Positions 18,251-44,817 of a stretch of 64,000 nt of DNA are shown here, in pieces. Under the pieces are notes generated by a model. That model had not been told where the DNA came from. It saw nothing but the letters and a program-made list of their open reading frames with translations, and ran no database searches. This stretch comes from Escherichia coli (lineage in GTDB: Bacteria > Pseudomonadota > Gammaproteobacteria > Enterobacterales > Enterobacteriaceae): NCBI RefSeq assembly GCF_036507355.1, contig NZ_AP027877.1; one strand, written 5' to 3'. The first letter of the stretch is position 1, and every line of letters begins with the position of its first letter. Both the position numbers and the translations under genes were made by a program.

Positions 18251-19465
18251 ATGAAATTACCGATTTATCTCGACTACTCCGCAACCACGCCGGTGGACCC
18301 GCGTGTTGCCGAGAAAATGATGCAGTTTATGACGATGGACGGAACCTTTGGTAACCCGGCCTCCCGTTCTCACCGTTTCGGCTGGCAGGCTGAAGAAGCG
18401 GTAGATATCGCCCGTAATCAGATTGCCGATCTGGTCGGCGCTGATCCGCGTGAAATCGTCTTTACCTCTGGTGCAACCGAATCTGACAACCTGGCGATCA
18501 AAGGTGCAGCCAACTTTTATCAGAAAAAAGGCAAGCACATCATCACCAGCAAAACCGAACACAAAGCGGTACTGGATACCTGCCGTCAGCTGGAGCGCGA
18601 AGGTTTCGAAGTCACCTACCTGGCACCGCAGCGTAACGGTATTATCGACCTGAAAGAACTCGAAGCAGCGATGCGTGACGACACCATCCTCGTTTCTATC
18701 ATGCACGTGAATAACGAAATCGGCGTGGTACAGGATATCGCGGCTATCGGCGAAATGTGTCGTGCTCGTGGCATTATCTATCACGTTGATGCAACCCAGA
18801 GCGTGGGCAAACTGCCTATCGATCTGAGCCAGTTGAAAGTTGACCTGATGTCTTTCTCCGGTCACAAAATCTATGGCCCGAAAGGTATTGGTGCGCTGTA
18901 TGTGCGTCGTAAACCGCGCGTACGCATCGAAGCGCAAATGCACGGCGGCGGTCACGAACGCGGTATGCGTTCCGGCACTCTGCCTGTTCACCAGATCGTC
19001 GGAATGGGCGAAGCCTATCGCATCGCAAAAGAAGAGATGGCGACCGAGATGGAACGTCTGCGCGGACTGCGTAACCGTCTGTGGAACGGCATCAAAGATA
19101 TCGAAGAAGTTTACCTGAACGGTGACCTGGAACACGGTGCGCCGAACATTCTCAACGTCAGCTTCAACTACGTTGAAGGTGAGTCGCTGATTATGGCGCT
19201 GAAAGACCTCGCGGTTTCTTCCGGTTCCGCCTGTACGTCAGCAAGCCTCGAACCGTCCTACGTGCTGCGCGCGCTGGGGCTGAACGACGAGCTGGCACAT
19301 AGCTCTATCCGTTTCTCTTTAGGTCGTTTTACTACTGAAGAAGAGATCGACTACACCATCGAGTTAGTTCGTAAATCCATCGGTCGTCTGCGTGACCTTT
19401 CTCCGCTGTGGGAAATGTACAAGCAGGGCGTGGATCTGAACAGCATCGAATGGGCTCATCATTAA
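18251..19465 (+). CDS. iscS: Cysteine desulfurase IscS
   Basis: [10 protein letters not shown] start (404 aa), PLP lysine motif [12 protein letters not shown], active-site SSGSACTS. Confidence 0.97.
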
Positions 19466-19492
19466 TCGGTATCGGAATCAGGAGAATTTATA

Positions 19493-19879
19493 ATGGCTTA
19501 CAGCGAAAAAGTTATCGACCATTACGAGAATCCGCGTAACGTGGGTTCCTTTGACAACAACGACGAGAACGTCGGCAGCGGCATGGTGGGTGCACCGGCC
19601 TGTGGCGACGTGATGAAGTTGCAGATTAAAGTCAACGATGAAGGTATCATTGAAGACGCGCGTTTTAAAACTTACGGCTGCGGTTCCGCTATCGCTTCCA
19701 GCTCCCTGGTCACCGAATGGGTGAAAGGGAAGTCTCTCGACGAAGCGCAGGCGATCAAAAACACCGATATTGCTGAAGAACTTGAACTGCCGCCGGTGAA
19801 AATTCACTGTTCTATTCTGGCAGAAGACGCGATCAAAGCCGCCATTGCGGACTATAAAAGCAAACGTGAAGCAAAATAA
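19493..19879 (+). CDS. iscU: Fe-S cluster scaffold IscU
   Basis: 128-aa ORF with the conserved Cys and LPPVK motif. Confidence 0.97.
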   Translation: MAYSEKVIDHYENPRNVGSFDNNDENVGSGMVGAPACGDVMKLQIKVNDEGIIEDARFKTYGCGSAIASSSLVTEWVKGKSLDEAQAIKNTDIAEELELPPVKIHCSILAEDAIKAAIADYKSKREAK

Positions 19880-19895
19880 GAGTTGAGGTTTGGTT

Positions 19896-20219
19896 ATGTC
19901 GATTACACTGAGCGACAGTGCAGCAGCGCGAGTAAATACCTTTCTGGCTAACCGCGGTAAAGGGTTTGGCCTGCGTCTGGGCGTGAGAACCTCCGGGTGT
20001 TCAGGTATGGCTTATGTACTGGAATTTGTTGACGAACCGACGCCGGAAGACATCGTGTTTGAAGACAAAGGCGTGAAAGTCGTGGTCGATGGCAAGAGCC
20101 TGCAATTTCTGGACGGTACGCAGCTGGACTTCGTAAAAGAAGGCCTGAACGAAGGGTTTAAATTCACCAACCCGAACGTCAAAGATGAGTGTGGTTGCGG
20201 CGAAAGCTTCCACGTTTGA
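19896..20219 (+). CDS. iscA: Fe-S A-type carrier IscA
   Basis: MSITLSD start (107 aa), C-terminal CGCGESF motif. Confidence 0.95.
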
Positions 20220-20233
20220 TGCGCATACCGATA

Positions 20234-20269
20234 ACCCCACCGTGGTCGCCTGCGCGTGGGGTTTGTTTT
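20234..20269 (+). terminator. Hairpin followed by T-tract between iscA and hscB (candidate partial terminator)
   Basis: CCCCAC...GTGGGG stem followed by tttgtttt. Confidence 0.4.
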
Positions 20270-20314
20270 ACCTGATTCGCCGTTATCGCGGCGGATCGCA
20301 GCCCTGAGAATGTT

Positions 20315-20830
20315 ATGGATTACTTCACCCTCTTTGGCTTGCCTGCCCGTTATCAACTCGATACCCAGGCACTGAGCCTGCGTTTTCAGGATCTACAACG
20401 TCAGTATCATCCTGATAAATTCGCCAGCGGAAGCCAGGCGGAACAACTCGCCGCCGTACAGCAATCTGCAACCATTAACCAGGCCTGGCAAACGCTGCGT
20501 CATCCGTTAATGCGCGCGGAATATTTGCTTTCTTTGCACGGCTTTGATCTCGCCAGCGAGCAGCATACTGTGCGCGACACCGCGTTCCTGATGGAACAGT
20601 TGGAGCTGCGCGAAGAGCTGGACGAGATCGAACAGGCGAAAGATGAAGCGCGGCTGGAAAGCTTTATCAAACGTGTGAAAAAGATGTTTGATACCCGCCA
20701 TCAGTTGATGGTTGAACAGTTAGACAACGAGACGTGGGACGCGGCGGCGGATACCGTGCGTAAGCTGCGTTTTCTCGATAAACTGCGAAGCAGTGCCGAA
20801 CAACTCGAAGAAAAACTGCTCGATTTTTAA
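20315..20830 (+). CDS. hscB: Co-chaperone HscB (J-domain)
   Basis: 171-aa ORF with J-domain HPD motif. Confidence 0.95.
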
Positions 20831-20846
20831 TTTCTGGAAGCTAAAC

Positions 20847-22697
20847 ATGGCCTTATTACAAATTAGTGAACCTGGTTTGAGTGCTGCGCCGCATCAGCGA
20901 CGTCTGGCGGCCGGTATTGACCTGGGCACAACCAACTCGCTGGTGGCGACAGTGCGCAGCGGTCAGGCCGAAACGTTAGCCGACCATGAAGGCCGTCACC
21001 TGCTGCCATCTGTTGTTCACTATCAACAGCAAGGGCATTCGGTGGGTTATGACGCGCGTACTAATGCAGCGCTCGATACCGCCAACACAATTAGTTCTGT
21101 TAAACGCCTGATGGGACGCTCGCTGGCTGATATCCAGCAACGCTATCCGCATCTGCCTTATCAATTCCAGGCCAGCGAAAACGGCCTGCCGATGATTGAA
21201 ACGGCGGCGGGGCTGCTGAACCCGGTGCGCGTTTCTGCGGACATCCTCAAAGCACTGGCGGCGCGGGCAACTGAAGCCCTGGCAGGCGAGCTGGATGGTG
21301 TCGTTATCACCGTTCCGGCGTACTTTGACGATGCCCAGCGTCAGGGCACCAAAGACGCGGCGCGTCTGGCGGGCCTTCACGTCCTGCGCTTACTTAACGA
21401 ACCGACCGCTGCGGCTATCGCCTACGGGCTGGATTCCGGTCAGGAAGGCGTGATCGCCGTTTATGACCTCGGTGGCGGGACGTTTGATATTTCCATTCTG
21501 CGCTTAAGTCGCGGCGTGTTTGAAGTGCTGGCAACCGGCGGTGATTCCGCGCTCGGCGGCGATGATTTCGACCATCTGCTGGCGGATTACATTCGCGAGC
21601 AGGCGGGCATTCCTGATCGTAGCGATAACCGCGTTCAGCGTGAACTGCTGGATGCCGCCATTGCAGCCAAAATCGCGCTGAGCGATGCGGACTCCGTGAC
21701 CGTTAACGTTGCGGGCTGGCAGGGCGAAATCAGCCGTGAACAATTCAATGAACTGATCGCGCCACTGGTAAAACGAACCTTACTGGCTTGTCGTCGCGCG
21801 CTGAAAGACGCGGGTGTAGAAGCTGATGAAGTGCTGGAAGTGGTGATGGTGGGCGGTTCTACTCGCGTGCCGCTGGTGCGTGAACGGGTAGGCGAATTTT
21901 TCGGTCGTCCACCGCTGACTTCCATCGACCCGGATAAAGTCGTCGCTATTGGCGCGGCGATTCAGGCGGATATTCTGGTGGGTAACAAGCCAGACAGCGA
22001 AATGCTGTTGCTTGATGTGATCCCACTGTCGCTGGGCCTCGAAACGATGGGCGGCCTGGTGGAGAAAGTGATTCCGCGTAATACCACTATTCCGGTGGCC
22101 CGCGCTCAGGATTTCACCACCTTTAAAGATGGTCAGACGGCGATGTCTATCCATGTAATGCAGGGTGAGCGCGAACTGGTGCAGGACTGCCGCTCACTGG
22201 CGCGTTTTGCGCTGCGTGGTATTCCGGCGCTACCGGCTGGCGGTGCGCATATTCGCGTGACGTTCCAGGTCGATGCCGACGGTCTTTTGAGCGTGACGGC
22301 GATGGAGAAATCCACCGGCGTTGAGGCGTCTATTCAGGTCAAACCGTCTTACGGTCTGACCGATAGCGAAATCGCTTCGATGATCAAAGACTCAATGAGC
22401 TATGCCGAGCAGGACGTAAAAGCCCGAATGCTGGCAGAACAAAAAGTAGAAGCGGCGCGTGTGCTGGAAAGTCTGCACGGCGCGCTGGCTGCTGATGCCG
22501 CGCTGTTAAGCGCCGCAGAACGTCAGGTCATTGACGATGCTGCCGCTCACCTGAGTGAAGTGGCGCAGGGCGATGACGTTGACGCCATCGAACAAGCGAT
22601 TAAAAACGTAGACAAACAAACCCAGGATTTCGCCGCTCGCCGCATGGACCAGTCGGTTCGTCGTGCGCTGAAAGGCCATTCCGTGGACGAGGTTTAA
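20847..22697 (+). CDS. hscA: Hsp70-type chaperone HscA
   Basis: [10 protein letters not shown] start (616 aa), Hsp70 ATPase motifs ([16 protein letters not shown]). Confidence 0.96.
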
Positions 22698-22698
22698 T

Positions 22699-23034
22699 AT
22701 GCCAAAGATTGTTATTTTGCCTCATCAGGATCTCTGTCCTGATGGCGCTGTTCTGGAAGCTAATAGCGGTGAAACCATTCTCGACGCAGCTCTGCGTAAC
22801 GGTATCGAGATTGAACACGCCTGTGAAAAATCCTGTGCTTGCACCACCTGCCACTGCATCGTTCGTGAAGGTTTTGACTCGCTTCCCGAAAGCTCAGAGC
22901 AGGAAGACGACATGCTGGACAAAGCCTGGGGACTGGAGCCGGAAAGCCGTTTAAGCTGCCAGGCGCGCGTCACCGACGAAGATTTAGTGGTCGAAATCCC
23001 GCGTTACACTATCAACCATGCGCGTGAGCATTAA
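22699..23034 (+). CDS. fdx: [2Fe-2S] ferredoxin Fdx
   Basis: 111-aa ORF with CxxxxxCxxC...C cluster ligands. Confidence 0.95.
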
Positions 23035-23045
23035 CAGAGGTTAGT

Positions 23046-23246
23046 ATGGGACTTAAGTGGACCGATAGCCGCGAAATTGGCGAAGCACTGTACGATGCGT
23101 ATCCCGATCTTGATCCGAAAACGGTTCGATTCACCGATATGCATCAGTGGATTTGCGATCTGGAAGATTTCGACGACGACCCGCAGGCATCCAACGAGAA
23201 AATCCTCGAAGCGATTTTGTTAGTCTGGCTGGACGAAGCCGAATAA
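23046..23246 (+). CDS. iscX: Fe-S assembly protein IscX
   Basis: 66-aa acidic ORF downstream of fdx. Confidence 0.92.
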
Positions 23247-23490
23247 TTTCCGCGTCATGCTTCACGCCGCAGATGCGTTGGCTGCGCTCGTTCACCCCAG
23301 TCACATAGTTATCTATGCTCCTGGGGCTTCACTCACTTGCCACGTGATTCGGCCTTTTGGCCTCACCCCTCCGGGGCCAGCGCAAGCGCTGTTCAAAACG
23401 CAATGCGTTTTGTCCTGCAACGCGAATCATTTAGCGGAAAAATCCTGGGGCTGCCAACTGGCGGCCCTTTTACAAAGAAGGATAACTAAA

Positions 23491-24774
23491 ATGACAGAAG
23501 CGATGAAGATTACCCTCTCTACCCAACCTGCCGACGCGCGCTGGGGAGAAAAAGCAACTTACAGCATTAATAATGACGGCATTACCCTGCATTTGAACGG
23601 GGTAGACGATCTGGGGCTGATCCAGCGTGCGGCGCGCAAGATTGACGGTCTGGGCATCAAGCATGTTCAGTTAAGCGGTGAAGGCTGGGATGCGGATCGC
23701 TGCTGGGCATTCTGGCAAGGTTACAAAGCCCCGAAAGGCACGCGTAAAGTGGAGTGGCCGGATCTGGACGATGCCCAGCGACAGGAACTGGATAACCGCC
23801 TGTTGATCATCGACTGGGTGCGTGACACCATCAACGCACCGGCGGAAGAGCTGGGGCCATCGCAACTGGCACAGCGTGCTGTTGATCTGATCAGCAACGT
23901 CGCAGGCGATCGTGTGACTTATCGGATCACCAAAGGCGAAGATCTGCGTGAGCAAGGTTATATGGGGCTGCACACCGTCGGACGCGGTTCAGAACGTTCT
24001 TCGGTATTGCTGGCGCTGGATTACAACCCAACTGGCGATAAAGAAGCGCCAGTGTACGCGTGCCTGGTAGGTAAAGGTATCACTTTTGACTCCGGCGGCT
24101 ACAGCATCAAACAGACTGCGTTTATGGACTCGATGAAGTCGGACATGGGCGGCGCGGCAACGGTTACCGGGGCGCTGGCATTTGCCATTACGCGCGGACT
24201 GAACAAGCGCGTGAAGCTGTTCCTCTGCTGTGCGGATAACCTGATTAGCGGCAATGCGTTCAAGCTGGGCGATATCATCACCTATCGCAACGGTAAAAAA
24301 GTTGAAGTGATGAACACTGATGCCGAAGGGCGTCTGGTGCTGGCCGATGGTCTGATTGATGCCAGTGCGCAGAAACCGGAACTGATCATTGATGCGGCGA
24401 CCCTCACCGGGGCGGCGAAAACTGCGCTGGGTAATGATTATCACGCGTTGTTCAGTTTTGACGATGCGCTTGCCGGTCGTTTGCTGGCGAGTGCCTCACA
24501 AGAGAACGAACCATTCTGGCGTCTGCCGCTGGCGGAATTCCACCGCAGCCAGCTGCCGTCTAACTTTGCCGAACTGAACAATACCGGAAGCGCGGCGTAT
24601 CCGGCAGGCGCGAGCACGGCGGCGGGCTTCCTGTCGCACTTTGTTGAGAACTATCAGCAAGGCTGGCTGCATATCGACTGCTCGGCGACTTACCGTAAAG
24701 CGCCGGTTGAACAGTGGTCTGCGGGTGCTACGGGACTTGGTGTGCGCACGATTGCTAATCTGTTAACGGCGTAA
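23491..24774 (+). CDS. pepB: Aminopeptidase B (M17 leucyl aminopeptidase family)
   Basis: Start [10 protein letters not shown] with AAGGA SD (427 aa); M17 signature NTDAEGRL; ORF track start 23257 is an upstream in-frame extension. Confidence 0.93.
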
Positions 24775-24916: not shown

Positions 24917-25693
24917 ATGTCCGAAACAAAAAATGAACTTGAAGACCTGCTGGAAAAAGCAGCAACCGAACCGGCGCACCGCCCGGCTTTTTTCCGTACT
25001 CTACTGGAATCCACCGTCTGGGTGCCTGGTACGGCGGCGCAGGGCGAGGCTGTGGTTGAAGAGAGCGCGCTTGATTTACAGCACTGGGAAAAAGAAGACG
25101 GCACCAGCGTCATTCCTTTTTTTACCTCGTTAGAAGCACTTCAACAGGCGGTTGACGGCGAACAGGCATTTGTTGTAATGCCCGTTCGCACATTGTTTGA
25201 GATGACCCTTGGCGAAACGCTCTTCCTTAATGCCAAACTGCCAACCGGTAAAGAATTTATGCCGCGTGAAATCAGTTTGTTGATTGGTGAAGAGGGAAAT
25301 CCGCTGAGCAGTCAGGAAGTACTGGAAGGCGGCGAATCGCTGATATTATCGGAAGTCGCAGAGCCGCCAGCACAAATGATTGATTCACTCACCACCTTAT
25401 TTAAAACCATTAAACCAGTGAAGCGTGCTTTTATCTGTTCAATTAAAGAGAACGAAGAGGCACAGCCTAATTTACTTATTGGTATTGAAGCCGATGGTGA
25501 TATCGAAGAAATTATTCAGGCGGCGGGAAGTGTAGCAACCGATACATTACCTGGCGATGAACCAATCGATATTTGCCAGGTGAAAAAAGGGGAAAAAGGA
25601 ATTAGCCATTTTATTACCGAACATATTGCGCCATTCTATGAACGTCGTTGGGGTGGTTTTTTGCGTGACTTTAAACAGAACCGGATAATCTAA
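24917..25693 (+). CDS. sseB: SseB (enhanced serine sensitivity protein B)
   Basis: ORF MSETKNELEDLL (258 aa); the ORF track start at 24908 is a GTG; synteny next to pepB. Confidence 0.88.
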   Translation: MSETKNELEDLLEKAATEPAHRPAFFRTLLESTVWVPGTAAQGEAVVEESALDLQHWEKEDGTSVIPFFTSLEALQQAVDGEQAFVVMPVRTLFEMTLGETLFLNAKLPTGKEFMPREISLLIGEEGNPLSSQEVLEGGESLILSEVAEPPAQMIDSLTTLFKTIKPVKRAFICSIKENEEAQPNLLIGIEADGDIEEIIQAAGSVATDTLPGDEPIDICQVKKGEKGISHFITEHIAPFYERRWGGFLRDFKQNRII

Positions 25694-25694
25694 A

Positions 25695-26000
25695 ATATGC
25701 CGCCCCAAAGGGCGGCATTCGGGCTTACCTGCTGTTCTGAAGGTTGTTAACCACCAGTAAATTGTTGCCGGAGAGACTCAGGTTATTATTTACCTCGGTT
25801 AACAGCGCACCAGAAACAATAAGTACGATACAAAAGCACCGTATCTTCATTGTGCGGTCCATGCGAAGACCGCATCACGACAGCACCACTGGCGATATTG
25901 CCGCGATAGCAAGCGCTGTGAAACACCTGCATTTACGGCCACGGAACATCCTTTCCTAAAGCCAGCGCCCGTTTGCGAGACGGCGGAAAGGGCCGGTGTC
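25695..26000 (-). ncRNA. ryfA: RyfA-like RNA, copy 1 (mRNA for a small hydrophobic protein); 5' end not determined
   Basis: Minus-strand hairpin gccgccc-tttg-gggcggc plus AUAUUUUA tail at about 25695-25722; location between sseB and sseA as for K-12 ryfA. Confidence 0.5.
25725..25850 (-). CDS. timP: TimP-like small hydrophobic protein, 41 aa (MKIRCFCIVLIVSGALLTEVNNNLSLSGNNLLVVNNLQNSR), copy 1
   Basis: Intact ATG...TAA ORF on the minus strand, below the 60-aa ORF-track cutoff; hydrophobic N-terminus; terminator immediately downstream; weak SD. Confidence 0.5.
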   Translation of the reverse strand: MKIRCFCIVLIVSGALLTEVNNNLSLSGNNLLVVNNLQNSR

Positions 26001-26034
26001 GATAATACGCTAAATAAACAATAATTACTCTCTT

Positions 26035-26063
26035 TTGCTTGACAAAAAGAGAGTTGCTGGCGA
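26035..26063 (+). promoter_or_regulatory. Candidate sigma70 promoter of the divergent sRNA, copy 1
   Basis: TTGACA at 26035-26040, 17-bp spacer, GAATAT at 26058-26063. Confidence 0.4.
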
Positions 26064-26067
26064 ATAT

Positions 26068-26177
26068 TGCTCTGCTGTGAAGCACCTGCGTTGCTCATGC
26101 AACACAAGTCAATCTGCTGGAGAGGCCGCGAACCAAACCGGCAACAAATAACCGCCTGATTTTGGCGGTTTTTTGTT
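26068..26177 (+). ncRNA. TimR/RyfB-like antisense sRNA candidate, copy 1
   Basis: Promoter-like element upstream, terminator ccgcc-tgattt-ggcgg-TTTTTT at 26150-26177; 5' segment complementary to the copy-1 RyfA 5' UTR. Confidence 0.45.
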
Positions 26178-26378
26178 GCTTAAAGAAAGTGAATTTACAT
26201 GTTTAAGTAATATCTTTTACCGGTTAGTATTTTTAATATTGAGCGGGATTTGTTTATATTTGTCTGAATTCGGACTAATAAGCCAGGTCATTTTAATATC
26301 GAACATATTGCGCCATTCTATGAACGTCGCTGGGATGGTTTTTTGCGTGACTTTAAACAGAACCGGATAATCTAAAAT

Positions 26379-26680
26379 ATGCCGCCCCAAAGGGCGGCAT
26401 TCGGGCTTACCTGCTGTTCTGAAGGTTGTTAACCACCAGTAAATTGTCGCCGGAGAGACTCCGGTTATTATTTACCTCGGTTAACAGCGCACCAGAAACA
26501 ATAAGTACGATACAGAAGCACCGTATCTTCATTGTGCGGTCCATGCGAAGACCGCATCAAGACAGCACCACTGGCGATATTGCCGCGATAGCAAGCACTG
26601 TGGGGTGCCTGTATTTACGGTCATGGAACATCCTTTCCTAAAGCCATCGCCCGTTTGCGAGACGGCGAAAAGGGCCATTA
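26379..26680 (-). ncRNA. ryfA: RyfA-like RNA, copy 2; 5' end not determined
   Basis: Second copy of the same terminator hairpin and ORF-bearing block. Confidence 0.45.
26407..26532 (-). CDS. timP: TimP-like small hydrophobic protein, 41 aa, copy 2 (two substitutions relative to copy 1: L24R, N29D)
   Basis: Intact ORF MKIRCFCIVLIVSGALLTEVNNNRSLSGDNLLVVNNLQNSR on the minus strand. Confidence 0.5.
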   Translation of the reverse strand: MKIRCFCIVLIVSGALLTEVNNNRSLSGDNLLVVNNLQNSR

Positions 26681-41561: not shown

Positions 41562-42740
41562 ATGCAATTGCGTAAATTACTGCTGCCAGGACTGCTTTCC
41601 GTTACCCTTTTAAGCGGCTGTTCGCTGTTTAACAGCGAAGAAGATGTGGTAAAGATGTCCCCATTGCCAACCGTTGAAAACCAGTTTACGCCGACCACGG
41701 CGTGGAGCACTTCCGTTGGTAGCGGCATTGGCAACTTCTATTCCAATCTTCATCCGGCACTGGCGGACAACGTTGTCTATGCAGCGGACCGCGCTGGTTT
41801 AGTAAAAGCGCTGAATGCGGATGATGGCAAAGAAATCTGGTCTGTCAGCCTGGCCGAGAAAGATGGCTGGTTCTCTAAAGAGCCTGCATTACTTTCTGGC
41901 GGTGTGACCGTGTCTGGTGGACATGTCTACATTGGCAGCGAAAAGGCGCAGGTTTACGCGCTGAATACCAGCGATGGTACTGTGGCATGGCAAACTAAAG
42001 TCGCGGGTGAAGCACTTTCGCGCCCGGTGGTCAGCGACGGTCTGGTGTTAATCCACACCAGTAACGGTCAGTTACAAGCGCTGAACGAAGCTGACGGCGC
42101 TGTCAAATGGACAGTTAACCTCGATATGCCTTCGCTCTCTTTGCGTGGCGAGTCTGCGCCGGCAACGGCTTTTGGTGCGGCCGTCGTGGGGGGCGATAAT
42201 GGTCGCGTCAGCGCAGTGCTGATGGAACAGGGCCAGATGATTTGGCAGCAGCGTATTTCCCAGGCGACCGGTTCTACCGAAATTGACCGTCTGAGCGATG
42301 TTGACACGACTCCCGTCGTTGTTAACGGCGTTGTTTTCGCGCTGGCCTATAATGGTAACCTGACGGCGCTTGATCTGCGCAGTGGTCAGATTATGTGGAA
42401 ACGCGAACTGGGTTCGGTGAATGATTTCATCGTCGACGGCAATCGCATCTATCTGGTCGATCAAAATGACCGGGTGATGGCGTTGACCATTGATGGCGGC
42501 GTTACGCTGTGGACACAAAGCGATCTGCTGCATCGCCTGCTGACTTCTCCGGTGCTGTATAATGGCAACCTGGTGGTCGGTGACAGTGAAGGTTATTTGC
42601 ACTGGATTAACGTCGAAGATGGTCGTTTCGTTGCCCAGCAAAAAGTTGATAGTTCCGGTTTCCAGACTGAACCGGTTGCCGCTGACGGCAAACTGCTGAT
42701 CCAGGCAAAAGACGGAACCGTGTACTCTATTACACGTTAA
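41562..42740 (+). CDS. bamB: Outer membrane protein assembly factor BamB (PQQ beta-propeller lipoprotein)
   Basis: 392-aa ORF with lipobox LLSGC. Confidence 0.95.
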   Translation: MQLRKLLLPGLLSVTLLSGCSLFNSEEDVVKMSPLPTVENQFTPTTAWSTSVGSGIGNFYSNLHPALADNVVYAADRAGLVKALNADDGKEIWSVSLAEKDGWFSKEPALLSGGVTVSGGHVYIGSEKAQVYALNTSDGTVAWQTKVAGEALSRPVVSDGLVLIHTSNGQLQALNEADGAVKWTVNLDMPSLSLRGESAPATAFGAAVVGGDNGRVSAVLMEQGQMIWQQRISQATGSTEIDRLSDVDTTPVVVNGVVFALAYNGNLTALDLRSGQIMWKRELGSVNDFIVDGNRIYLVDQNDRVMALTIDGGVTLWTQSDLLHRLLTSPVLYNGNLVVGDSEGYLHWINVEDGRFVAQQKVDSSGFQTEPVAADGKLLIQAKDGTVYSITR

Positions 42741-42857
42741 TCGTCTCTGTCGTTCACTTTGAAAACGGCTCCTGGACAGGGGCCGTTTTCCTGTTTTTAA
42801 CAACGACGCGAATATAGCGTGCGTTGTCTGATGATTTATAAAAATGAGGCTTTAAAC

Positions 42858-44330
42858 ATGGTACCTGTGGTCGCGCTTGTCGGGCGCCCTAACGTAGGAA
42901 AATCCACGTTATTTAACCGTCTAACTCGCACCCGAGATGCGCTGGTTGCGGATTTCCCGGGTCTGACTCGTGACCGTAAGTACGGTCGTGCGGAAATTGA
43001 AGGCCGTGAGTTTATCTGTATTGATACCGGCGGGATTGATGGCACAGAAGACGGTGTAGAAACCCGCATGGCGGAACAGTCGCTGCTGGCGATTGAAGAA
43101 GCGGACGTCGTACTGTTTATGGTGGATGCGCGCGCGGGCCTGATGCCGGCAGATGAAGCGATTGCCAAACATCTGCGCTCCCGTGAAAAACCGACCTTCC
43201 TGGTGGCAAACAAAACTGACGGTCTGGATCCCGATCAGGCAGTGGTTGATTTCTACTCGCTTGGTTTAGGTGAAATCTACCCGATCGCCGCGTCTCACGG
43301 TCGTGGCGTATTAAGTCTGCTGGAGCATGTGCTGCTGCCGTGGATGGAAGATCTCGCACCGCAAGAGGAAGTCGACGAAGACGCTGAATACTGGGCGCAA
43401 TTTGAAGCGGAAGAGAACGGCGAAGAAGAAGAGGAAGACGACTTCGACCCGCAAAGTCTGCCGATCAAACTGGCGATTGTGGGTCGTCCGAACGTAGGTA
43501 AGTCTACACTCACTAACCGTATTCTTGGTGAAGAGCGCGTTGTTGTTTACGACATGCCTGGCACGACGCGTGACAGCATCTACATCCCAATGGAACGCGA
43601 TGGACGTGAGTATGTGCTCATTGACACCGCTGGCGTACGTAAACGCGGCAAAATCACCGATGCTGTAGAGAAATTCTCCGTAATCAAAACGTTGCAGGCC
43701 ATTGAAGACGCCAACGTGGTGATGTTAGTGATTGATGCGCGCGAAGGTATTTCCGATCAGGATCTCTCGCTGCTGGGCTTTATTCTCAATAGTGGGCGCT
43801 CACTTGTCATTGTGGTGAATAAGTGGGATGGCCTGAGTCAGGAAGTGAAAGAGCAGGTGAAAGAGACACTGGACTTCCGTCTGGGCTTTATCGATTTTGC
43901 TCGCGTGCACTTTATCTCTGCATTGCACGGCAGTGGTGTTGGTAACCTGTTTGAATCAGTGCGTGAAGCTTATGACAGTTCCACCCGTCGCGTGGGTACG
44001 TCTATGCTGACACGAATTATGACCATGGCTGTTGAAGATCACCAACCGCCGCTGGTACGTGGTCGTCGTGTGAAGCTGAAATATGCCCACGCTGGTGGTT
44101 ATAACCCGCCGATTGTGGTGATTCACGGTAACCAGGTAAAAGACCTGCCGGATTCTTACAAGCGTTATTTGATGAACTATTTCCGCAAGTCTCTGGATGT
44201 GATGGGGACGCCGATTCGTATTCAGTTCAAAGAAGGGGAAAACCCGTATGCGAATAAGCGTAACACCCTGACGCCGACCCAGATGCGCAAGCGTAAGCGC
44301 CTGATGAAGCATATCAAGAAAAGTAAGTAA
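42858..44330 (+). CDS. der: Ribosome-associated GTPase Der/EngA (tandem GTPase domains)
   Basis: Start [16 protein letters not shown] (490 aa); two G1 motifs GRPNVGKS; KH-like C-terminus. Confidence 0.96.
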
Positions 44331-44392
44331 TTACTTATCTGGTTTCCCTTTCCATATGGAGAGGGAAATCCATAAAAATGTGAGGATCATTT

Positions 44393-44608
44393 ATGGAACT
44401 CAGCTGCCCAATCTGCCAAAACCCTCTCGAACGTAATGGCGAGGCTACTCACTGCGCAACGTGTAACAAAGATTTCATAGTCCAGGCTCTTTGTCCTGAC
44501 TGCCACCAACCTTTGCAGGTATTAAAAGCGTGTGGTGCGGTGGATTATTTCTGCCAGCATGGTCACGGTTTAATTTCTAAAACCCGTATTGAATTTGTCA
44601 TTGTTTAA
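44393..44608 (+). CDS. yfgJ: Small Cys-rich protein YfgJ (zinc-ribbon like)
   Basis: 71-aa ORF with CxxC pairs. Confidence 0.88.
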   Translation: MELSCPICQNPLERNGEATHCATCNKDFIVQALCPDCHQPLQVLKACGAVDYFCQHGHGLISKTRIEFVIV

Positions 44609-44817
44609 TATCACTGGAATATATGATTTCACATTATATATTCCTAATATAAATATTATAATCTCTTTCCTATTAGATTAACGACTAATTAAAAATGTGT
44701 AAAGTCACATTCTTATAATTTTAAGATTATATTTAGCACTTATGGAGTGCAGTTCCTGTGCTATCTGGAATACAATATTAGACATTATTTCAGAATTAAA
44801 TTTTCACAGAGAAAAAC

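Follow-up and report, generated by a model that had tools for sequence, protein, structure and literature searches.

The AT-rich yfgJ-sinH spacer of Escherichia coli as a conserved, putative control region of sinH and sinI

Introduction

What is the strongly AT-rich tract that separates yfgJ from sinH in Escherichia coli: the edge of an acquired island, a target of silencing by H-NS, or a conserved control region of the genes that follow it? In extraintestinal E. coli, SinH, an intimin-like inverse autotransporter, serves as a fitness factor, and it is also a vaccine candidate (PMC9937491). Here we address the question for a stretch of 64,000 nucleotides of E. coli DNA, which is referred to as the window, by analysing the composition of the tract, its conservation across genera, the ancestry of the surrounding DNA and the published work on the regulation of sinH.

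Results

Genes of the locus

The gene order at the locus is bamB, der, yfgJ, sinH, sinI, a RatA-like remnant, xseA (minus strand), guaB and guaA. The features needed first are the following.

42858-44330: der
44393-44608, plus strand: yfgJ, encoding a zinc-ribbon protein of 71 aa, with the TAA stop at 44606-44608
44609-44817, plus strand: AT-rich yfgJ-sinH spacer, the proposed sinH-sinI control region (composition; conserved length and G+C content)
44818-46998, plus strand: sinH, encoding an intimin-like inverse autotransporter of 726 aa, 48% G+C, with the ATG at 44818
47054-48019, plus strand: sinI-family partner gene (match to NF040711)
48191-49573: RatA-like remnant of 460 aa
49642-51018, minus strand: xseA

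SinH matches the NCBIfam equivalog NF033423 with 1477 bits (cut-off 999) and SinI matches NF040711 with 421 bits; the RefSeq annotation of a near-identical locus likewise carries the sinH label and a zinc-ribbon protein at the position of yfgJ. With a SinH equivalog and a SinI partner located between yfgJ and xseA, the locus belongs to the sinH/sinI loci (CS54 / ila). An in-frame sinH start upstream of the ATG at 44818 was not found. According to Shea 2022, as cited in PMC12525524, sinI is co-transcribed with sinH in UPEC.

Several further observations were made on the neighbouring genes. The RatA-like gene is 5.15 kb shorter than in O145:H28 (compare positions 18789-23941 of that locus, L001), its ORF of 460 aa matches NF011844 at the C-terminal end only, and this remnant arrangement was found in no complete E. 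coli genome of the collection, the best coverage being 70%. The sinI product comprises 321 aa in the window versus 297 aa in O145:H28, with an alignment break of about 60 bp at 47821-47882, which suggests an indel or a repeat difference. In the gap that separates sinI from the RatA-like remnant, Rfam gives a match to the sRNA ES036 (CssrF) at 48098-48140 on the minus strand (52.4 bits, gathering score 37.6). Elsewhere in the window, the ordinary E. coli sRNA genes for two copies of ryfA and for an IS128 RNA are located at 25692-26678, each with an Rfam score above 225 bits.

Composition of the spacer

A sequence-only reading of the window had pointed out the 209 bp between yfgJ and sinH as strongly AT-rich, and this is borne out with exact coordinates: positions 44609-44817 are precisely the yfgJ-sinH spacer, whose G+C content is 24.4% (75.6% A+T) versus 51.8% for the whole 64-kb window. 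In the sliding-window GC calculation that had been proposed as a check, only 0.05% of all 209-bp segments of the window were equally low in G+C, and the lowest of them (23.4%, starting at 44592) overlaps the tract. When compared with all intergenic gaps that are 60 bp or longer (n = 25), the spacer also has by far the lowest G+C content, the next value being 34.1% and the median 46%. Measured in 50-bp steps across 44550-44899, the G+C fractions are 0.40, 0.20, 0.20, 0.24, 0.30, 0.36 and 0.42, i.e. the trough at the spacer is sharp and about 250 bp wide. The many TATA and ATAT runs that had been described are indeed present, with 7 and 8 copies, respectively, but they do not reflect an excess of TpA steps, of which the spacer contains 31 compared to 29.8 ± 3.4 in shuffled sequences; since this is the number expected from composition, the runs add nothing beyond AT-richness.

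Only two other places in the window have a G+C content of 30% or less, and both are located at 56.2-57.1 kb around yfgG. These two tracts flank yfgG (56546-56737), which lies upstream of pdeF (57089), and are adjoined by an IS1-like insA/insB pair (55485-56182 and 56176-57065) between yfgH and yfgG.

Conservation of the spacer across genera

We compared 16 orthologous spacers from five genera, which comprise E. coli alleles, Escherichia sp. E1V33, E. whittamii, E. albertii, Citrobacter, Pseudocitrobacter, Superficieibacter and one further enterobacterium; Salmonella loci are not part of the set. All 16 loci have yfgJ preceding sinH, with a spacer of 192-247 bp and 22-32% G+C, and the G+C content of sinH ranges from 47 to 55%. 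The spacers align poorly, with a mean column identity of 45% (n = 16), and all 8 columns that are invariant among the 16 sequences fall within either an upstream block or a -10-like block, those of the upstream block being T44722, T44728, A44731 and T44732-34. The AT-richness, in turn, is kept along the entire spacer across the genera and extends beyond these two motifs, which points to selection on composition. Since the arrangement of yfgJ, spacer and sinH is common to the five genera together with the AT-richness, the tract is part of the sinH module and not an insertion edge. We read the AT-richness as a long-standing feature that has been selected in the sinH module, and not as a scar of island insertion. 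The tract is otherwise an ordinary AT-rich regulatory spacer.

An AT-rich spacer of this kind could also encode a product of its own, i.e. a small RNA or a small protein. It does contain short ORFs, e.g. 44742-44894 (50 aa) and 44705-44785 on the minus strand (26 aa), as well as one stable hairpin, which is described below. However, the spacer yielded no Rfam match, neither at E ≤ 1 on 44000-45300 nor at the gathering score in a scan of the entire window, the 50-aa ORF has a CTG instead of its ATG in the close alleles SCPM-O-B-8794 and E69, and outside the two motifs no conservation of the spacer sequence was found across the orthologues. We therefore regard a product encoded by the spacer as very improbable.

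Promoter model

The elements of the spacer that enter the proposed promoter model, and those located in its vicinity, are listed here.

44616-44644, plus strand: AT-rich hairpin, 8 nt past the yfgJ stop (arms 44616-44627 and 44633-44644, 5-nt loop)
44628-44657, plus strand: promoter-like site TTCACA-18-AATATT (consensus scan; poorly conserved outside close relatives)
44704-44733, plus strand: promoter-like site GTCACA-18-TATATT (consensus scan; overlaps the upstream block)
44720-44736, plus strand: upstream block TTTAAGATTATATTTAG, which as an 18-bp element reads TTTAAGATTATATTTAGC (44720-44737); cross-genus consensus TTTTAGGAATTyATTTAG
44771-44776, plus strand: predicted sigma-70 -10 hexamer TACAAT (TAnAAT in 14 of the 16 orthologous spacers)
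44781-44784, plus strand: predicted transcription start, about 7 nt past the -10 hexamer
44807-44812, plus strand: Shine-Dalgarno-like AGAGAA (sequence comparison)

The hexamer TACAAT is close to the sigma-70 -10 element TATAAT, and no usable -35 hexamer near TTGACA was found at 16-18 bp from it (the best match is 2/6 in the window and 1-4/6 in the orthologues); an extended -10 TG is absent at TACAAT as well. The upstream block, whose motif occurs as a single copy in the 64-kb window, would be located at about -63 to -46 relative to the predicted start. The gap between its 3' end and the -10 hexamer measures 33-34 nt in 14 of the 16 spacers, the exceptions being Superficieibacter with 45 nt (11 bp more, which is about one helical turn) and Escherichia sp. 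MOD1-EC7003 with 42 nt, and the start codon follows the -10 hexamer at a variable distance of 18 to 60 nt. The earlier suggestion that the tract contains the sinH promoter thus gains support from TAnAAT and the upstream block, which keep a fixed spacing in otherwise scrambled spacers, and the conservation pattern indicates that the spacer is very probably the 5' control region holding this promoter. Since a conserved -10 hexamer without a -35 element is combined with an upstream site at fixed spacing, the sinH promoter looks like a weak, activator-dependent one, and the upstream block represents a candidate site for an activator (LeuO-type) or for UP-like contacts.

A consensus promoter scan of the spacer returned 2 sites, compared to 2.6 expected in shuffled sequences, and did not pick the TACAAT promoter. 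One of the two sites, GTCACA-18-TATATT, is a possible alternative promoter (P2), within Escherichia only. Among the candidates for known binding sites, the palindrome TGTG-N6-CACA at 44696-44709 was rejected as a CRP site, its spacing being wrong and its left half unconserved, and by-eye comparisons of the upstream block with the consensus sequences of RcsB, PmrA, Fis, SlyA and sigma-E gave partial matches, none of which was convincing.

The predicted leader of about 35 nt is without significant structure (fold z = -0.49). Within the Shine-Dalgarno-like element, which is a weak one, A44810 is derived: O145:H28, E1V33 and E. whittamii have a G (AGGGAA), and the A is common to the window and 33F4. 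As judged from the sequence, this G-to-A exchange may lower the translation of SinH.

The hairpin downstream of yfgJ is formed by an inverted repeat of 92% complementarity with a fold z of -2.6 versus shuffled sequences. Among 7 Escherichia alleles, 3 of its 9 pairs change on both sides, and the consensus energy amounts to only -4.2 kcal/mol. With only 2 G-C pairs and no U-tract the hairpin does not qualify as an intrinsic terminator, and the terminator scan found 0 terminators; possibly, it weakly terminates or attenuates transcripts coming from der-yfgJ. We also observed a 24-nt direct repeat, CTGGAATA...CATTAT, at 44614-44637 and 44765-44788 (79% identity), which is not conserved outside close relatives; one of its copies overlaps the hairpin and the other one the predicted -10 hexamer.

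Boundary and exchange of the locus

In a survey of 5426 complete E. coli genomes, the locus was found in three states. The allele of the window, at an identity of at least 95%, is carried by 48 of the 5426 genomes, including O145:H28 and 33F4, the latter being 100% identical to the window over 44331-44900. A common sinH allele, which is about 76% identical over yfgJ, the spacer and the 5' part of sinH, is present in about 1700 genomes. In the remaining genomes (K-12 type), the whole interval from the yfgJ stop to the xseA stop is missing, yfgJ abuts xseA with an overlap of 4 bp, and homology to the window ends at 44609. The tract had been interpreted as the left boundary of an island. This holds for the edge of presence and absence relative to K-12, which is located at 44609, but not for the switch in ancestry, which lies further upstream inside der.

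43860-43864, no strand: crossover within der at the left end of the imported E1V33-like segment (discriminating sites)

The window is identical to K-12 over 42598-43864, and from 43865 on it is 98-100% identical to Escherichia sp. E1V33 and 90-95% to K-12. Indeed, all 26 sites between 43481 and 43859 that discriminate K-12 from E1V33 are K-12-like (26/26), and those from 43865 on are E1V33-like. The crossover is thus located 745 bp upstream of the spacer, and yfgJ lies inside the imported block; the YfgJ protein shows an amino acid identity of 100% to that of E1V33, 82% to that of the common sinH-positive allele and 65% to that of K-12. At the right end, the divergence from K-12 runs into xseA to about 50.65-50.9 kb. 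Upstream of the crossover, E1V33 itself is 90-95% identical to E. coli, from which it follows that E. coli received the DNA from an E1V33-like donor. In O145:H28, which has this imported allele as well, the crossover lies at 44060-44093, again inside der (L001 14668-14701). According to these alignments, homologous recombination with an E1V33-like donor replaced the segment that begins at about codon 335 of der, comprises yfgJ, the spacer, sinH and sinI and ends within xseA; the AT-rich tract thus moves together with sinH.

The question remains whether the spacer could nevertheless be the insertion junction of a mobile genomic island, representing its attachment site or a scar. The end of homology at 44609 and the absence of the locus in K-12-type E. 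coli would fit such a junction, and the locus is described in a review as an island gained by horizontal transfer (PMC12525524). However, no tRNA gene is located within 38-58 kb (tRNA scan), the two junctions have no direct repeat of at least 10 bp in common and no integrase is annotated in the locus. In addition, the same arrangement of yfgJ, spacer and sinH is found in five genera and the ancestry switches inside der, at positions that differ between two E. coli lineages. We therefore consider an insertion junction extremely unlikely. Crossovers that are located inside der and differ by lineage rather imply homologous replacement, accompanied by deletion in K-12-like lineages, and the simplest history is that of an old yfgJ-sinH-sinI-ratA-xseA locus, which was deleted in many E. 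coli and exchanged via der and xseA.

Two side observations concern sequence divergence in this region. The 5' half of yfgJ (44393-44500) is hypervariable, and only its 3' half still shows homology to K-12 at the DNA level. A patch at 51780-52350 is 91-97% identical to K-12 within a guaB gene that is otherwise 99-100% identical; it is probably another small recombination tract.

Possible silencing by H-NS and activation by LeuO

H-NS binds preferentially to DNA whose A+T content is about 65% or higher, and LeuO is an antagonist of H-NS. Over its 209 bp, and thus over at least 100 bp, the spacer exceeds the genome average in A+T by far, and we consider an occupancy by H-NS likely. The sequence TCGATAAATT is reportedly a high-affinity H-NS motif; none of its 85 matches in the window within 2 mismatches is located in 44609-44817, the nearest one being at 44388-44397. 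A 10-11-bp periodicity of AA/TT, which we used as a simple proxy for curvature, was not detected in the spacer either, and 59% of the shuffled sequences reach its value. Since the AT-rich stretch is short (about 250 bp) and the adjoining genes have 47-50% G+C, island-wide xenogeneic silencing is not expected. Extended H-NS filaments at the sinH locus are therefore unlikely, and silencing by H-NS would be promoter-level at most and not island-wide. In the papers searched, H-NS ChIP or hns-mutant data naming sinH, STM2517 or CS54 were not found.

Goh et al. 2019 gave the name iatB to the E. coli orthologue of sinH (PMC6714894). In strain SMS-3-5, an iatB::lacZ fusion placed on the chromosome was silent in the laboratory, and a Tn5 screen of about 30,000 insertions yielded 12 up-mutants, all of which drive leuO (PMC6714894). 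Over-expression of LeuO raised iatB mRNA about 15-fold without detectable iatB protein, and SinH could not be detected in cultures (PMC6714894). Up-regulation of sinH has been reported for urinary tract infections in humans (PMC9937491). The spacer of SMS-3-5 is orthologous to that of the window, with which it shares the length of 209 bp, the TACAAT hexamer and 67% identity. Taken together with the composition of the spacer, these results make silencing of the sinH promoter by H-NS plausible; whether H-NS would be the main cause of the silence of sinH is, in our assessment, an evenly balanced question.

Alternatively, the spacer could hold an ordinary activator-dependent promoter, whose AT-richness serves melting, UP-like contacts and factor binding, with H-NS being unimportant and the activator being absent under laboratory conditions. 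This explanation is consistent with a conserved -10 hexamer that lacks a -35 element, with the conserved upstream site at fixed spacing, with the spacer being free of an H-NS motif or curvature signal and with the short AT-rich stretch next to a gene body of average G+C content; moreover, no hns insertions were reported in the published Tn5 screen for iatB up-mutants (PMC6714894). However, the sole activator so far is LeuO, which is known for counteracting H-NS, a stretch of 200 bp with 75% A+T falls well within the range that H-NS binds, and the AT-richness is conserved spacer-wide and not at the two motifs alone. We thus consider it rather unlikely that H-NS is unimportant for sinH in this way.

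Discussion

We favour, as the somewhat more probable explanation, that the tract is the conserved control region of sinH and sinI, from which H-NS keeps sinH off in the laboratory and a LeuO-type antagonist turns it on. According to this proposal, the AT-rich hairpin in the first 40 bp might damp read-through from der-yfgJ, and the TACAAT promoter without a -35 element would be intrinsically weak and need an activator. The spacer with its 75% A+T would be a good substrate for H-NS/StpA, so that H-NS might occupy it under laboratory conditions and sinH would be off. In the host, an antagonist of the type of LeuO (LysR) could act at or near the upstream block and turn sinH on. The transcription start, the H-NS occupancy and the factor binding to the upstream block are elements that we infer. 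Going further, and only tentatively, one may speculate that the upstream block is the operator of a dedicated activator of SinH-type inverse autotransporters, which predates the divergence of Escherichia, Citrobacter, Pseudocitrobacter and Superficieibacter, that this activator acts from a fixed position some 34 bp upstream of the promoter without a -35 element, and that the AT-rich spacer represents a switch between H-NS and anti-H-NS which has been conserved, and not a consequence of horizontal transfer; we regard this as doubtful.

Three things come out of the analysis: a concrete model of the promoter, a candidate operator that is conserved across genera, and a corrected transfer boundary. 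The promoter model pinpoints TACAAT at 44771-44776 and the block at 44720-44737 as targets for mutations and fusions in the search for the inducing signal. Besides, the sinH locus is a clean example of a so-called island that is exchanged by homologous recombination via flanking core genes with lineage-specific crossovers; it would therefore be a mistake to take the AT-rich edge of a gene for the limit of transferred DNA.

Among the known systems, the xenogeneically silenced islands SPI-1 and LEE resemble the sinH locus in that AT-rich DNA is associated with variable virulence genes. However, in these cases the entire island is AT-rich and H-NS coats kilobases, whereas the sinH locus has about 250 bp of AT-rich DNA and genes of 47-50% G+C, close to the 51.8% of the window. 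The sinH promoter would rather belong to the AT-rich adhesin promoters that are silenced by H-NS and counter-silenced. In Yersinia, inv is under silencing by H-NS/YmoA versus RovA. In EHEC, fdeC is controlled by H-NS and temperature (Easton 2014, as cited in PMC6714894). Both share with sinH an inverse-autotransporter adhesin gene and an AT-rich control region and, going by the SMS-3-5 allele, a lack of expression in standard culture and a proposed switch by an H-NS antagonist. They differ in that H-NS binding and hns derepression were demonstrated there, whereas they are proposed for sinH, and in that the proposed antagonist for sinH is LeuO and not RovA/SlyA.

The gene order in the CS54 island from Salmonella enterica is xseA-shdA-ratB-ratA-sinI-sinH-yfgJ (Kingsley 2003, as cited in PMC4943183). 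Gene-order comparison shows that this island, the 'ila locus' of UPEC and the window have in common sinH and sinI between yfgJ and xseA, followed by a gene for a RatA/RatB-type adhesin, whereas, unlike CS54, the window is without shdA and its RatA-like gene is cut to the 460-aa C-terminal remnant. Of the known cases, the one nearest to the window is the iatB/sinH promoter of SMS-3-5, which has the orthologous position between yfgJ and sinH, the same length at about 24% G+C, the TACAAT hexamer and a related upstream block. It nevertheless represents a separate allele, given the 67% identity of the spacers and about 76% over yfgJ, the spacer and the 5' part of sinH; the G-to-A exchange in the Shine-Dalgarno element is a feature of the window, whereas the LeuO tests were made on the SMS-3-5 allele.
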